Source: Escherichia phage SR02
Sequence record: OQ870566.1
DNA: 64,000 nt
Direction: 5' to 3' (one strand)
In this document: piece after piece, positions 24,714 through 38,355 of the stretch
Layout: each line of letters opens with the position of its first letter
Numbering within the stretch: the first letter of the stretch is position 1
Position numbers and translations under genes: made by a program
Notes under the pieces: model-generated
What the model saw: the letters and a program-made list of their open reading frames with translations, nothing else
Databases searched by the model: none
Told to the model about the DNA's origin: nothing

Positions 24714-24789
24714 GCGCTCTTAGCTCAATGGATAGAGCAGTAGCCTTCTAAGCTATTGGTTACAGGTTCGAGTCCTGTAGGGCGCACCA
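24714..24789 (+). tRNA. tRNA-Arg (anticodon UCU)
   Basis: 76-nt cloverleaf folded by hand: acceptor GCGCTCT/AGGGCGC, D-stem GCTC/GAGC, anticodon stem GTAGC/GCTAT with loop CTTCTAA, T-arm ACAGG-TTCGAGT-CCTGT, encoded CCA. Confidence 0.85.
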
Positions 24790-32887: not shown

Positions 32888-33505
32888 GTGAGCTTAGTAG
32901 CTGATTTTTCTCATTACTATAATGGTACATGGATTGCTAAACGAGCAGGTAATATCAACCTTCCATGTTTTGTGATTGGTGTTGAGCAGAGCGGTAACTT
33001 CCGCAGCGATGACTTCTCTCACGAAGCAGAGCAGGCTCTGTATTTTGTTGTAGAGCAGTGGTACAAGAATGAGCAAGGGAATCTTCGAAACACTACGATG
33101 AATATTCCAGTGTTCGACCCAACCTTGATTCTTGAATCACCTGATGTTGGTTATCTGTTCCATAACGGTAACACTGTAAGCTGGACTCATATTAACCCTG
33201 TTCGTCAGAGAGCAAAGGGTTTGATGGGTAATAAGATTCGAAATGCTCCGGGTGTTGGTCGTGCCATCTCCGGGGAGATGGTTTACAGCCTGTTCAATCC
33301 TGAATTCGAGGGATTGGTTACTCGTTATATTTACATCAACCCTACTGATGGTAAGGTGCATTATAAAGGTGCACTGGTAGGACAAGTAGATCTGGAAGCA
33401 CCTCGTGACTCTTACGGTCAGCAATCAATGCGACTTCTGGAACACTTTCATCACATTTCTGAAAACCTTAGCAATTACAATATTACGTTGGTGGATTCGT
33501 TATGA
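32888..33505 (+). CDS. hypothetical protein (205 aa)
   Basis: GTG start, overlap-coupled. Confidence 0.5.
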   Translation: MSLVADFSHYYNGTWIAKRAGNINLPCFVIGVEQSGNFRSDDFSHEAEQALYFVVEQWYKNEQGNLRNTTMNIPVFDPTLILESPDVGYLFHNGNTVSWTHINPVRQRAKGLMGNKIRNAPGVGRAISGEMVYSLFNPEFEGLVTRYIYINPTDGKVHYKGALVGQVDLEAPRDSYGQQSMRLLEHFHHISENLSNYNITLVDSL

Positions 33506-34605
33506 CAACTGTAGCGCAAACTTTTGGATATCGAGAAGGTCGTTTAACTGAGGCGCATAGTTCAATTGCACTTCAGTGCGGTGTCGGTATTGAACTTGAA
33601 CTCGAAGGTTCCGATCATATCGAAGCAGATATGTGGGATTGTACAGAGGATGGTTCCCTGCGTAATGGTTGTGAAATGGTATGTTCACGACCTTACAACG
33701 GACAGGAGTTGTTAGACGCTATCAACAACCTGAGTGAAGCAGTAGCTGAATCGCACGCCGAGGGGACTTGGCGTTGCTCTACTCACGTTCATATGGATAT
33801 GAGGGATGCTGATAGTAATATCCTCAAGAAAACCATTCTCGCTTGGACCTTCTATGAAAAGATGTTGTTCAAGTGTTCAGGCTATCATCGTTACCGTAGC
33901 AACTTCTGCCCTGCGTTTGCAGTGGTACAAGCACAGGTAATGAATGCCTCTGACGCATTTAACTACGACGATGAAGAGTTCTTCAACCGTCTGGTTCGTT
34001 CATGGGATAAGTATACATCCCTGAACCTTCTGCCACTTGCCCAATACGGTTCGATTGAATTCCGTATCAGTGAGCCTAAGTGGAAACGTGGTCAACTTCT
34101 CAATCTGGTTAACCGCTTCTTGATGTTGAAGAAGCTGGCTTTAGATAACGCAGAGATGAGCAATGATCAGTTTATTGAGCATTTAAATACTGTACGATTT
34201 GCCCCAATGCTTCCTTACCTTCCTCTGGATTACAATCTGGACGAATCGGATTTGCATTCAGGGTATTGTATGGCCCGTGATGTTTTGTATTGCCGTTCTC
34301 ATGGAGTAGAGCAGTCTGGTCGTATTCGTTTACGTCGAACCAACTCCAACGGAGAAGTTCTTGTTGACTTACGTCTTATCTCAGACTTCTACGGATTCCT
34401 TGGATATGTACGAGGGAACGCTAACAACTTGTACCAAGAGATTCTGGTTATGCTTCGTACAACTGACCTATCTACTGTACGATCTGCACCAGAGCAACGT
34501 ATCCGTGCTATTTTTGACTTACTGCGTGAGTCAGGTCACAGTGATAGCAATATCACAGGGTACATTCCAGATCATCTGGAAAATCAGTTAGAGCAAGCGC
34601 TGTAA
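33502..34605 (+). CDS. amidoligase (Amidoligase_2-like carboxylate-amine ligase)
   Basis: GVGIELELEG...CSTHVHMDMRD...FRISEP motifs; genomic context with GAT-like and AIG2-like genes matches the family's known neighbourhoods. Confidence 0.6.
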   Translation: MTTVAQTFGYREGRLTEAHSSIALQCGVGIELELEGSDHIEADMWDCTEDGSLRNGCEMVCSRPYNGQELLDAINNLSEAVAESHAEGTWRCSTHVHMDMRDADSNILKKTILAWTFYEKMLFKCSGYHRYRSNFCPAFAVVQAQVMNASDAFNYDDEEFFNRLVRSWDKYTSLNLLPLAQYGSIEFRISEPKWKRGQLLNLVNRFLMLKKLALDNAEMSNDQFIEHLNTVRFAPMLPYLPLDYNLDESDLHSGYCMARDVLYCRSHGVEQSGRIRLRRTNSNGEVLVDLRLISDFYGFLGYVRGNANNLYQEILVMLRTTDLSTVRSAPEQRIRAIFDLLRESGHSDSNITGYIPDHLENQLEQAL

Positions 34606-34684
34606 TCAATGGGTGCCTCTGATAAAGGGGCACAATTTAAAGGTTAATTAGATGAAAGGGTTTACCCTTCAGGTGGATTAGAAA

Positions 34685-36715
34685 ATTTGTGGCATCGTAT
34701 TAGCTGGCGGTAATCTGTCAAGCACTGATTTAGATGTATTCAACCAACTCTTTTATGCTGGAGTGTTCCGAGGACAACATTCCTCTGGTATCTTTGGTCA
34801 GCGTAAGAGCACTAAGGAAGTCTTCACCTATAAAGAAGCCCTTCCTTCTTTCGCATTCATCCTTCAAGATGAGTACAAGAAGCACACCACTGGTGAAACA
34901 GCTTACACTGTAGCACCTTCATGGATTGTTGGTCATAGCCGTCATGCAACGAAAGGTGCAGTTAACGCCAAGAACGCCCATCCTTTCCAACATGGTAACA
35001 TCACTCTGGTTCATAACGGAACCTTGATGGACCAAGATCTGTTACCTGACAGCAAAAACTTCGAGGTAGACAGTGAGAACATCTGCCACTCTATTAACAC
35101 TATTGGTGCAGCAGAGACTATTCAAAAGCTGGATGGTGCTTTCACCTTAATCTGGCATGATGCTTCTGACAACCGTCTTCATATCATCCGTAACGAAGAG
35201 CGTCCATTCCATCTCGCACGTTGTAACAGAGATTGGTTTGGTGCTTCTGAAGAAGACATGTTGATGTGGATTCTGAAGCGTTCTAAGTCTCACAAGAACC
35301 GTATTGATGAGCACTTTGAATGTAAAGTTGGTACAGAGTATATCTTTGACATGTCAAACAACAGTATGACTCTAGTTGAAGAGGTCGCCCACGAGCTTCC
35401 GGTTTTTACGGTAATCAATCGTTGGGGCAATTACTACTCGAACAACTACAGCCAAAGCAATTATCAAAGTTCCTCAAAAAGCAGTACAAGCAATCCTTAC
35501 GACACGAAGCCGGGAGTGACAGCGGCAGACGTTCGTCGAAGAAACGCAGTGGTAAGTCAAAACAAAATCGCAAGCGATCGAAACATTGATATTCGCCGCG
35601 ATATGACTGTGGAAATCACACCACATGAGTTTATTCCTTATGCAACTGCTGGTGCTGTTCCTTCTCGTGGTAAGATGATCGGTTATATCTACGATGAGAA
35701 GTCTCAAGAGTATATCGAAGGTGATGTTCATAACGTAGACATTAAGGCTTATCAGGATGCCCTGAAAGACCCTAAAATTGTTTACCGTGGGACAGTATCC
35801 TGTATCTCCGAAGTTAATGCTATGGTTCGTTTAGTGATCACAGCAGGTCGTTTTGTTGACCCATCTCTGGAGAAAAAGGAGCCTGAGTCTACTACTGCTG
35901 ACTTTGATGATGATATCCCTTTTGATATGAATGATAGTTTCGTCAATAAGAATGGCGTTACTATCACTCGTAAATTCTGGGAAGCACACTCTCATGGCGA
36001 TTGCGGTGGTTGTGACAAACACATTGATTGGAAGGATGCACCTAAAGCAGTCTTCGCATATCAGTGCTATTGGCACCCTGAATGTCTGGAAGGTTTGACT
36101 AAACCTAAAGATGAAGAAGAGGAGGAAACTCCTATTGGTGTTTGTGAAATCTGCGGTGAAGTTAAAACAGAGAACGAGTTCGATGATGAACTTAGTCGTC
36201 TTCGTGGTGAAGATATCTGTAAAGTCTGCGCTGTAGATGTAAAGAAGAAAGTATCTAATGCTACAATCAAAGATGGTTATGTCTGGATTAAAGCAACAGA
36301 TACAACAAACGCCCGTCGTCCTGAATTTGCTTTACGTGTAACTGAAGATATGATTGGTCGTATGACTGTATTACCTTCCTCAGCGAAACAGACAGGCATC
36401 ACTCTGGAGGATGTTGTTGACGCTTATGTTGAGAAACGTAGCAACAGTATTTTTGCAATCTCAACTAAGCCAAAAAAGGAGGAACCTGCTGAGAAAGCAG
36501 GTGTGTTTCCTGAATCACGAACAGCTCTCCGCAAAACTGTTGTCAGCTTCGACGGAAACCGAAGCACTGACTTCACCAAAGCCATGTGGTCAACCCTCGG
36601 CTACTGCTCAGAGTGTTTTAAGCAGATTCCGTGGCGCGATGCTGAAAGTTGTACGCTTGGTTCTATGAATCAAGTTTATTGTAATTCTCCTAAATGTTCA
36701 TTGAATAGAGGTTAA
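34685..36715 (+). CDS. class II (Ntn-type) glutamine amidotransferase with C-terminal Cys-cluster domain; predicted AUU start
   Basis: Translation from 34685 gives (M)CGIVGLAG...GHSRHATKG...HNGTL...DSE; no in-frame ATG/GTG/TTG between the upstream stop and the catalytic Cys codon; AGGTGG 8 nt upstream of ATT. Confidence 0.7.
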   Translation: MCGIVLAGGNLSSTDLDVFNQLFYAGVFRGQHSSGIFGQRKSTKEVFTYKEALPSFAFILQDEYKKHTTGETAYTVAPSWIVGHSRHATKGAVNAKNAHPFQHGNITLVHNGTLMDQDLLPDSKNFEVDSENICHSINTIGAAETIQKLDGAFTLIWHDASDNRLHIIRNEERPFHLARCNRDWFGASEEDMLMWILKRSKSHKNRIDEHFECKVGTEYIFDMSNNSMTLVEEVAHELPVFTVINRWGNYYSNNYSQSNYQSSSKSSTSNPYDTKPGVTAADVRRRNAVVSQNKIASDRNIDIRRDMTVEITPHEFIPYATAGAVPSRGKMIGYIYDEKSQEYIEGDVHNVDIKAYQDALKDPKIVYRGTVSCISEVNAMVRLVITAGRFVDPSLEKKEPESTTADFDDDIPFDMNDSFVNKNGVTITRKFWEAHSHGDCGGCDKHIDWKDAPKAVFAYQCYWHPECLEGLTKPKDEEEEETPIGVCEICGEVKTENEFDDELSRLRGEDICKVCAVDVKKKVSNATIKDGYVWIKATDTTNARRPEFALRVTEDMIGRMTVLPSSAKQTGITLEDVVDAYVEKRSNSIFAISTKPKKEEPAEKAGVFPESRTALRKTVVSFDGNRSTDFTKAMWSTLGYCSECFKQIPWRDAESCTLGSMNQVYCNSPKCSLNRG

Positions 36716-37158: not shown

Positions 37159-38355
37159 ATGACTACTCGTATCCGTGTTCTTCCTTATGGCCCTTCTGAT
37201 TCAGTTCGTGAACTTACTTCTGCAATTAACACTAAGATTCAGGAACTTCGACTAAATGCTAACGTAATGTCTCTGGTATCAGAAGGCTCTCGTTATCGTT
37301 CTCGTGTTGGTGATATTGTTGTCAACTACGGAAACCGTCGATACAACGACTCTTTCTTTGGTGGCGCAACTGTGTTGAACTCTGTGGTTGCCTTGAACCG
37401 AGCGGCTAACAAAGTTGCAGCATTTAACGCACTGCGTTTAGCTGAAGTCAAAACTGTTGAATACACCGTCGATCGTGAAGTAGCTCAGAACTGGAACCGG
37501 AATGAAATTGTTTATGAACGTGGAACCTTAACTGGTCACTCTGGAGAAGGTATTACTGTTCGTCTTACGCGAGAAGGTGTTGCGGATGCTCCTCTATACA
37601 CCAAAGGCATCCAAGGCCCACGTCGTGAATGGCGTGTTCATGTGTTCGAAGGTGTTATCACTTACGTTCAGAAGAAGATTCGTCGTAATGGTTATCGTGA
37701 ACTGGAAAGTTATCGTGAAGATATTCGTAACCATCACACTGGTTGGGTTTATTCTAACTCCTTCACTGAAGCGCCTCCTGATCAAGTTCTTATTCAAGCT
37801 CACAAAGCTGTATCTGCTCTGGGTTTGAACTTCGGTGCTGTTGACCTGATTAGCAAAGGTACTAACGCATGGGTTCTGGAAGTTAATACAGCTCCGGGCC
37901 TGACTGGCACAACTCTGGAAACCTACACTCACAACATCGTTGAGTTTGTTAAGAGTTTCTCTGGTGTTGATCCTGACTACCGCGTTGCTTACGAACTGCC
38001 TGTTGAAGAAGTGGAAGAAGAATTTGCTGAATCGGCAGATGACGAAAACTTTGCATTGGCAGCTGAGCCAGTTGCTGAAGAGTCTTCGGAGCCTGTTCCT
38101 GAAACAATGCAAGTTGAAGAACAAGGGTTAGAGATCAACCCGGTAACCCGTCGTAATCTGCGTCGTGGTTATTATATCGCTAACATCAAGCATCCTGAAA
38201 ACGGTTCGACTGTAGCAAGTAACGTGATCTTGTTCTTCTGTGGTCGTAACTTCTACCGCTCTGGATGGAACGCACCAATTAGTGATCGTCAGCTTGGTCG
38301 TGTGTTGCAGATTAATAGCCTTACCCTGAATGATGGCACTGTTGTAAACTACTAA
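37159..38355 (+). CDS. ATP-grasp family ligase
   Basis: GAVDLISKGTNAWVLEVNTAPGLTG ATP-grasp signature; acidic C-terminal tail. Confidence 0.75.
   Translation: MTTRIRVLPYGPSDSVRELTSAINTKIQELRLNANVMSLVSEGSRYRSRVGDIVVNYGNRRYNDSFFGGATVLNSVVALNRAANKVAAFNALRLAEVKTVEYTVDREVAQNWNRNEIVYERGTLTGHSGEGITVRLTREGVADAPLYTKGIQGPRREWRVHVFEGVITYVQKKIRRNGYRELESYREDIRNHHTGWVYSNSFTEAPPDQVLIQAHKAVSALGLNFGAVDLISKGTNAWVLEVNTAPGLTGTTLETYTHNIVEFVKSFSGVDPDYRVAYELPVEEVEEEFAESADDENFALAAEPVAEESSEPVPETMQVEEQGLEINPVTRRNLRRGYYIANIKHPENGSTVASNVILFFCGRNFYRSGWNAPISDRQLGRVLQINSLTLNDGTVVNY

Follow-up and report, generated by a model that had tools for sequence, protein, structure and literature searches.

A probable AUU start codon behind an invariant mini-ORF leader in the glutamine amidotransferase gene of phiEco32-like phages

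Among annotated bacterial genes, 81.8% start with ATG, 13.8% with GTG and 4.35% with TTG. Initiation at AUU is described for Escherichia coli infC, which follows thrS (PMC3592434), and for pcnB, the gene of poly(A) polymerase I, whose AUU has been cited as one of just two confirmed cases in E. coli. In the reporter system of Osterman, AUU gave 6-8-fold lower expression than AUG, and GUG was as strong as AUG (PMC3592434); another reporter study placed near-cognate starts at ~0.02-3% of AUG. The sequences AUGUG and GUGUG have been described as ambiguous initiation sites, AUGUG permitting dual-frame initiation in E. coli (Kohl et al. 2022, PMC9841429). Here we analyze a glutamine amidotransferase gene of Escherichia phage SR02, within a 64,000-nucleotide (nt) stretch of record OQ870566.1 that we call the window, in which ATT occupies the likely start position directly before the codon of the catalytic cysteine. 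Enzymes of the class that includes GlmS, PurF and AsnB must carry Cys as residue 1 of the mature protein.

The amidotransferase coding sequence (CDS), as given by the list of open reading frames (ORFs) and a three-way alignment, runs from 34685 to 36715 on the + strand, like every feature of the locus described below, and encodes 676 amino acids (aa; 76.1 kDa). Its presumed initiation codon, ATT at 34685..34687, would be decoded as formylmethionine (fMet) and is followed at 34688..34690 by TGT, the codon for the catalytic Cys1 of the N-terminal-nucleophile (Ntn) glutaminase domain. Upstream, in the amidotransferase frame, lies a nine-codon mini-ORF (34652..34681, MKGFTLQVD; ATG AAA GGG TTT ACC CTT CAG GTG GAT) that ends with TAG at 34679-81, leaving AAA (34682-84) as the one codon between this stop and ATT. 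The Shine-Dalgarno (SD) sequence, AGGTGG at 34671..34676, sits within the mini-ORF, 8 nt 5' of ATT. Its AGGUG:CACCU pairing with 16S rRNA spans 5 bp at -7.2 kcal/mol and ranks 52 of 128 among phiEco32 genes, a real but ordinary site of average strength for this phage, with 8-9 nt from AGGUG to AUU. A re-reading of the sequence bore out all the coordinates in a preliminary description of this locus (ATG, TAG, AAA, ATT, TGT and AGGTGG), as well as its remark that no ATG, GTG or TTG separates the TAG from the Cys codon, AAA and ATT alone being there. The first canonical in-frame start 3' of ATT is the GTG at 34763..34765; the ORF list confirms that a start at this codon would remove residues 1-26 and with them the catalytic Cys, as had been pointed out.

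The ATT is fixed in a large group of phages. Over the 2.5 kb around the site, the window shares 96.6-99.2% identity with phiEco32-like coliphages (Kuravirus, Gordonclarkvirinae), Shigella phage SGF2 being the closest, and the homologue of the gene in phiEco32 is phi32_83 (96.6% nucleotide identity across these 2.5 kb). Of 96 GenBank phage records, 68 match the 61-nt stretch 34640-34700 exactly, and the remaining 28 carry one mismatch in it. This mismatch is probably synonymous: in the sequences read from the 28-record group (L005, L006, L020, L021), it changes GGC to GGT at 34693. The ATT was also found in independent IMG/VR and metagenome contigs. At the equivalent position, sister lineages (62-69% protein identity) and the outgroups Privateer, GAP52, 7-11 and 4_4572 have ATG-TGT, and the segment from SD to start is homologous between them, reading AGAGGATTATAAGATG in a sister lineage and AGGTGGATTAGAAAATT in the window.

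Constraint on coding begins at the Cys codon. Between subclades of the Gordonclarkvirinae, codons 2-26 show 8-11 synonymous versus 3-5 non-synonymous codon differences, and the first variable sites 3' of ATT (+5, +8, +20, +23 and +26) are all third codon positions, with a period of 3. ATT itself does not vary, in contrast to the third position of each of the two codons after it. This codon-like evolution indicates that the stretch before GTG 34763 is translated in the amidotransferase frame. Judged from sequence, the locus appears to combine what is expected of an AUU-initiated gene: AUU at the position where orthologues start, no in-frame canonical start, and an SD at functional spacing.

The identity of the protein adds to this, as the Cys must be exposed. 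Pfam matched GATase_6 (PF13522; 55 bits, cut-off 27) and GATase_7 (PF13537; 27.4 bits, cut-off 25), both confined to residues 77-194. A search of the PDB with the single sequence returned no match. With a family profile, the search matched the glutaminase domain of GlmS (1xff, E=1.5e-6), aligning RxAT, NAHP, VHNG and D(S/T)E, for which 1xff has HTRWATHG, VHNG and DTE among the counterparts; further matches were 1ecb, 1ao0 and 6gq3, from the GlmS, PurF and AsnB set. Invariant in a 7-sequence alignment are C2, R29, GH(S/N)RxATxG, H110-N111-G112 and D129-S130 (DSE), and C2, G3, I4, V5 and G8 are unchanged across the amidotransferase family. Cys occupies codon 2 in every IMG/VR and metagenome locus whose match begins at residue 1; in a close relative from a metagenome contig (L106) it is encoded by TGC, not TGT. 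By these matches, the product is a class-II (N-terminal-nucleophile) glutamine amidotransferase with predicted glutaminase activity. The RefSeq name "L-glutamine-D-fructose-6-phosphate aminotransferase" (GlmS) is unsupported: the tandem SIS isomerase domains of the GlmS C-terminus were sought in the protein with Pfam and not found, and GATase models alone match. The C-terminal ~440 aa are Cys-rich and match no Pfam family. This region (~35400-36715) contains three zinc-ribbon-like Cys clusters, CGGCDKH...C..C, CEICGE...CKVC and CSEC...C..C, none of which has a Pfam match.

We conclude with good confidence that translation of the phi32_83-type amidotransferase probably starts at AUU 34685, directed by the SD, and is followed by removal of the initiator Met. 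The AGGUG 8 nt upstream would position the ribosome on AUU, initiator tRNA would decode this codon as fMet, and deformylase and methionine aminopeptidase would strip the Met and expose the catalytic Cys1, so that the mature enzyme would be expected to begin with CGIVLAGGNLSSTDLDVFNQLFYAGVFR. Weak and discriminated against by initiation factor 3 (IF3), AUU would keep enzyme output deliberately limited and potentially condition-sensitive; the combination of a weak AUU and a merely average SD suggests a design that limits amidotransferase synthesis. The mini-ORF probably modulates initiation at AUU, the likeliest route being the delivery of terminating ribosomes 3 nt before it, and its contribution is in principle not essential. 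The preliminary description had left initiation at AUU, termination-reinitiation and readthrough side by side. Initiation at AUU is supported by the homology to ATG, by the coding constraint and by the ATT/ATC that other lineages carry independently at this position; readthrough is disfavored, as TAG is an ordinary stop and no suppressor tRNA was found; and termination-reinitiation is a possible contributing route, which AUU/AUC starts elsewhere in the family do not need.

The start at ATT is as such not new, being already part of public annotation. The CDS begins at the same ATT, with 676 aa, in phiEco32 (EU330206 / NC_010324), in SU10_085 and in Bas89_0080. Of the 128 CDS of phiEco32, 112 start with ATG, 13 with GTG, 2 with TTG and only phi32_83 with ATT, so the depositors' choice must have been deliberate. 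Other records call the start differently: at GTG 34763 (SGF2, YF01), at the ATG at 35027..35029 (Paul) or at other downstream codons (PAS59, KBNP1711). A full-text literature search combining ATT or AUU start with phage or amidotransferase, of incomplete coverage, returned nothing that discusses or tests the ATT. What may be new is the invariant mini-ORF leader, its infC-like geometry and the recurrence of AUU/AUC starts among phage Ntn amidotransferases.

We evaluated this recurrence in 80 IMG/VR and 79 metagenome loci of the family, collected by motif patterns that are blind to the start codon; in each locus we read the codon before the Cys codon, and we then clustered at 90% protein identity. 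Of the resulting 113 clusters, 91 had ATG only, 11 ATT only, two ATC only, one both ATC and ATT, and one both ATG and ATT; seven had TTG and none GTG. ATT or ATC thus occurs in 15 of 113 clusters (~13%), compared with ~6% for TTG. Outside the Gordonclarkvirinae, the lineages with ATT/ATC are L038, L040, L042, L044/L118, L064, L136/L137, L144/L145, L149, L152, L157, L160 and L168. Each of these lineages has its own SD and nearest neighbors that start with ATG, and none except L157 has an in-frame canonical start 5' of its ATT/ATC; in L064 a TAA directly adjoins ATT. On a neighbor-joining tree, which is crude, this distribution implies roughly a dozen apparently independent switches to ATT/ATC. 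Two assemblies each support L136/L137 and L144/L145; replicates of L038, L040, L042 and L064 were sought in IMG/VR, where each occurs just once. Six cultured phages of other genera have ATG in five cases and TTG in one (PA11).

A natural swap of initiation regions is apparent from sequence in L136/L137 and L140, which are ~98% identical over the aligned flanks and differ in a 39-nt leader segment, the former with a GGAG SD and ATT, the latter with a weak SD and ATG. Across the family, SD strength did not differ significantly between ATT/ATC and ATG lineages (Mann-Whitney p=0.14). The absence of GTG would fit ambiguous initiation at GUGUG, since GUG before the obligatory UGU/UGC always creates this sequence, and the use of UUG, AUU and AUC but not GUG would also fit selection for low output. 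We propose tentatively, as a real possibility short of an even chance, that AUU/AUC starts are a recurrent, selected trait of phage Ntn glutamine amidotransferases, and that the infC-like leader of the Gordonclarkvirinae may tie synthesis of the enzyme to IF3 or ribosome status during infection.

The leader of the Gordonclarkvirinae is conserved to an unusual degree. Twelve unique sequences of this group have zero variable sites from -47 to +4 relative to ATT; in the same 12 sequences, third positions vary at 70 of 79 (89%) in the first 80 codons of the amidotransferase. An exact run of 54 nt against KBNP1711 defines an invariant block (34639..34692) that holds the mini-ORF, the SD, TAG, ATT and the Cys codon. 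The leader is the sole stretch with 30/30 identity within a 1.5-kb three-way alignment, and genome-wide against KBNP1711 its run ranks 37th of 47 exact runs of at least 50 nt; its conservation is exceptional locally, not globally. The mini-ORF has no synonymous variation in any relative, across 96 or more genomes. With all its third positions fixed, the constraint must act on the nucleotide sequence and not on the peptide alone. The block further contains a direct repeat matching at 10 of 12 positions, found by repeat search: AGGTTAATTAGA at 34641..34652, which comprises the weak SD (AGGU) of the mini-ORF and its spacer, and AGGTGGATTAGA at 34671-34682, 30 nt away. Each copy lies directly 5' of a start, the mini-ORF ATG or the amidotransferase ATT, and the repeat may be a duplicated initiation region or else due to chance.

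We considered several causes of the invariant block. RNA structure is not supported, the fold of 34636-34710 having z = -0.5, and the centroid structure lacks the weak helix that could hide the SD. A search of Rfam at E<=1 over 34300-35000 returned no family. A promoter or terminator in the block was rejected: no promoter-like site was found on the + strand, and there is no match to tAATGTAtA, the consensus of the phage sigma factor. An antisense TTGACA-16-TACGAT (34721 to 34694) was discarded, as 1.0 such sites are expected by chance and sister clades do not retain its -35 element. The window holds no second copy of the block with up to 3 mismatches. A super-strong SD that would compensate for the weak AUU was also rejected, given the rank of 52/128. 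In L110, L113, L007 (Privateer) and L008 (GAP52), the sequence TTTAAATGTAAA is conserved ~23 nt 5' of the amidotransferase ATG. Read as codons, it gives an AUG-UAA "start-stop", and 7 of 9 positions agree with tAATGTAtA, the promoter consensus of the phiEco32 sigma factor gp36. The Kuravirus clade lacks this sequence and has the mini-ORF in its place.

Several points weigh against initiation at AUU 34685 as proposed. The 51-nt invariance exceeds the need of an SD and a start codon, and an extra function is probably present. With an average SD and a weak near-cognate start, sufficient enzyme output is hard to explain without help. Out-of-frame UUG 34687 and GUG 34689, which overlap AUU-UGU and would encode peptides of 8 and 4 codons, respectively, could compete with AUU. 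An upstream ORF that ends nearby shows no enrichment in lineages with ATT/ATC (11/19) relative to ATG lineages (68/102, p=0.60). Finally, proteomics of SU10 lysate detected the amidotransferase with 9 peptides, so the protein is made during infection, but is uninformative on the N-terminus, as the database entry is a truncated model: the expected mass in its table, 63.8 kDa, is that of the ATG 35027 model and not the 76.1 kDa of the ATT form, and the "identified" mass of 63.7 kDa simply reflects that entry.

The explanation that survives best beside ours is obligatory termination-reinitiation, in which ribosomes would load at AUG 34652, stop at UAG 34679 and restart at AUU while held by AGGUG, with de novo initiation negligible. 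We regard this as unlikely, though worth serious weighing. The geometry of a stop, 3 nt and AUU is that of thrS-infC, where reporter data put the share of reinitiation at about half of downstream initiation (PMC3592434). The AUG of the mini-ORF is preceded by a weak SD (AGGU) and an A/U-rich leader and followed by AAA, every base of the mini-ORF is fixed, and both initiation regions form the direct repeat described above. In addition, a 79-nt spacer with a hairpin replaces, in this clade, the direct gene-to-gene coupling of most family members, for which the mini-ORF could substitute. However, the fixed synonymous sites point to constraint at the RNA level rather than to translation per se, and sister lineages that bear the hairpin have neither a homologous upstream ORF ending at the start nor ATT. 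The lineages L040, L044/L118, L136, L144, L149, L157 and L160 lack any upstream ORF of at least 4 codons ending within 12 nt. Together with the absence of enrichment across the family, these lineages indicate that coupling is not a general requirement for AUU/AUC starts.

Readthrough of the UAG is very improbable. Translation would start at AUG 34652 and yield a pro-enzyme, MKGFTLQVD-X-KI-Cys, that would itself cleave off its 12-residue propeptide, as does PurF of Bacillus subtilis, an Ntn amidotransferase with a short propeptide; the shared frame of mini-ORF and amidotransferase is in its favor. Against it, TAG is an ordinary stop that ends 14 of 128 phiEco32 genes. The sole tRNA gene of the window is a tRNA-Arg (TCT) at 24714-24789, which matches the single tRNA annotated in phiEco32 (tRNA-Arg, within 45001-77554, none being listed in 1-50000), and suppression is therefore not expected. 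The putative propeptide codons lack the synonymous variation seen in the enzyme codons, outgroups begin directly at Met-Cys, and in L038, L040, L064, L136, L160 and others the open stretch before ATT has no in-frame canonical start.

A true start farther downstream, at GTG 34763 (expected N-terminus (M)FRGQHSSGIFGQR) or ATG 35027, has still less to recommend it and is hardly credible. The Cys region would be untranslated and the glutaminase domain dead throughout the clade. Gene callers and several depositors chose such starts, and the expected mass for SU10 equals the ATG 35027 model. However, this mass is the paper's own expectation from the truncated database model, codons 2-26 are under purifying selection with codon periodicity from the Cys codon, C2, G3, I4, V5 and G8 are family-invariant, and the remaining catalytic residues are kept. 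A sequencing or assembly error, which the preliminary description had asked to be excluded, or a pseudogene in decay whose start has mutated, has next to no chance of being right: ATT is one base from ATG and four of the ATT/ATC lineages (L038, L040, L042, L064) are IMG/VR singletons, but all 96 phage records, sequenced independently, share the ATT with additional metagenome contigs, which refutes an error for the clade, the 676-codon ORF is intact, and the protein has been detected by mass spectrometry.

The amidotransferase belongs to a gene cluster of a COOH-NH2 ligase, an amidoligase, the amidotransferase and an ATP-grasp protein. The upstream gene (33502..34605) is an Amidoligase_2 gene, the homologue of phi32_84 (Pfam PF12224, E=4e-8; phiEco32 annotation), whose TAA stop lies 79 nt 5' of the amidotransferase ATT. 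Between this stop and the mini-ORF, minimum-free-energy and centroid folds both give an 8-bp hairpin (34613..34633), which is atypical as a terminator because no T-run follows it. Its structure is kept and its sequence is not: in sister clades, the two strands of the stem are both altered (GGGCGC...GCGCC) or the loop is cut to GAAA, and Privateer, GAP52, 7-11 and 4_4572 each form a hairpin at the equivalent position. Downstream, the ATP-grasp gene (37159-38355) carries the RefSeq name "ribosomal protein S6 glutaminyl transferase", which is unsupported because its RimK and Dala_Dala_lig_C matches (16 and 17 bits) fall below the curated cut-offs. In Escherichia phage YF01 (L188), a 507-nt HNH endonuclease gene that the window does not have lies between the amidotransferase and the phi32_82 homologue.

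If translation begins at AUU 34685 as we propose, this phage site would be a third candidate AUU start expressed in E. coli, one that is experimentally tractable, and it is conserved in ~100 cultured phages. The position of the start has a built-in proof, namely that the enzyme requires Cys as residue 1. Most records of the gene use a downstream start that deletes this catalytic residue, a systematic mis-annotation, and a non-trivial class of AUU/AUC starts in phages would escape gene callers restricted to ATG, GTG and TTG. The real frequency of such starts could be estimated from enzymes whose N-terminus is fixed. The invariant mini-ORF leader would also provide a compact natural system for studying reinitiation at a near-cognate codon.

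Compared with the described systems, the phage leader is closest to that of E. coli infC, with which it shares the AUU start, a 3-nt gap after the upstream stop and an SD inside the upstream ORF (PMC3592434); the junctions read UAG-AAA-AUU in the phage and UAA-GGU-AUU in thrS-infC. With the SD in the upstream ORF and the 3-nt gap, reinitiation plus de novo initiation would be expected, as at infC. Unlike infC, the upstream ORF of the phage is a nine-codon mini-ORF and not a full gene, and the product is not IF3, leaving no evident autoregulatory logic. The likeness to pcnB would be that of a weak AUU start limiting the synthesis of an enzyme, whereas the protein families are unrelated, and pcnB has no upstream mini-ORF and no catalytic N-terminal residue that pins its start. 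With GlmS, PurF and AsnB, the phage enzyme shares a Cys right after the initiator Met and the RxxT, HNG and D(S/T)E motifs, but it has no SIS, PRTase or synthetase domain and starts with ATT rather than ATG. The AUGUG motif of Kohl et al. begins every ATG-starting member of the family, the second codon being UGU/UGC, and in the Gordonclarkvirinae the first codon is AUU.

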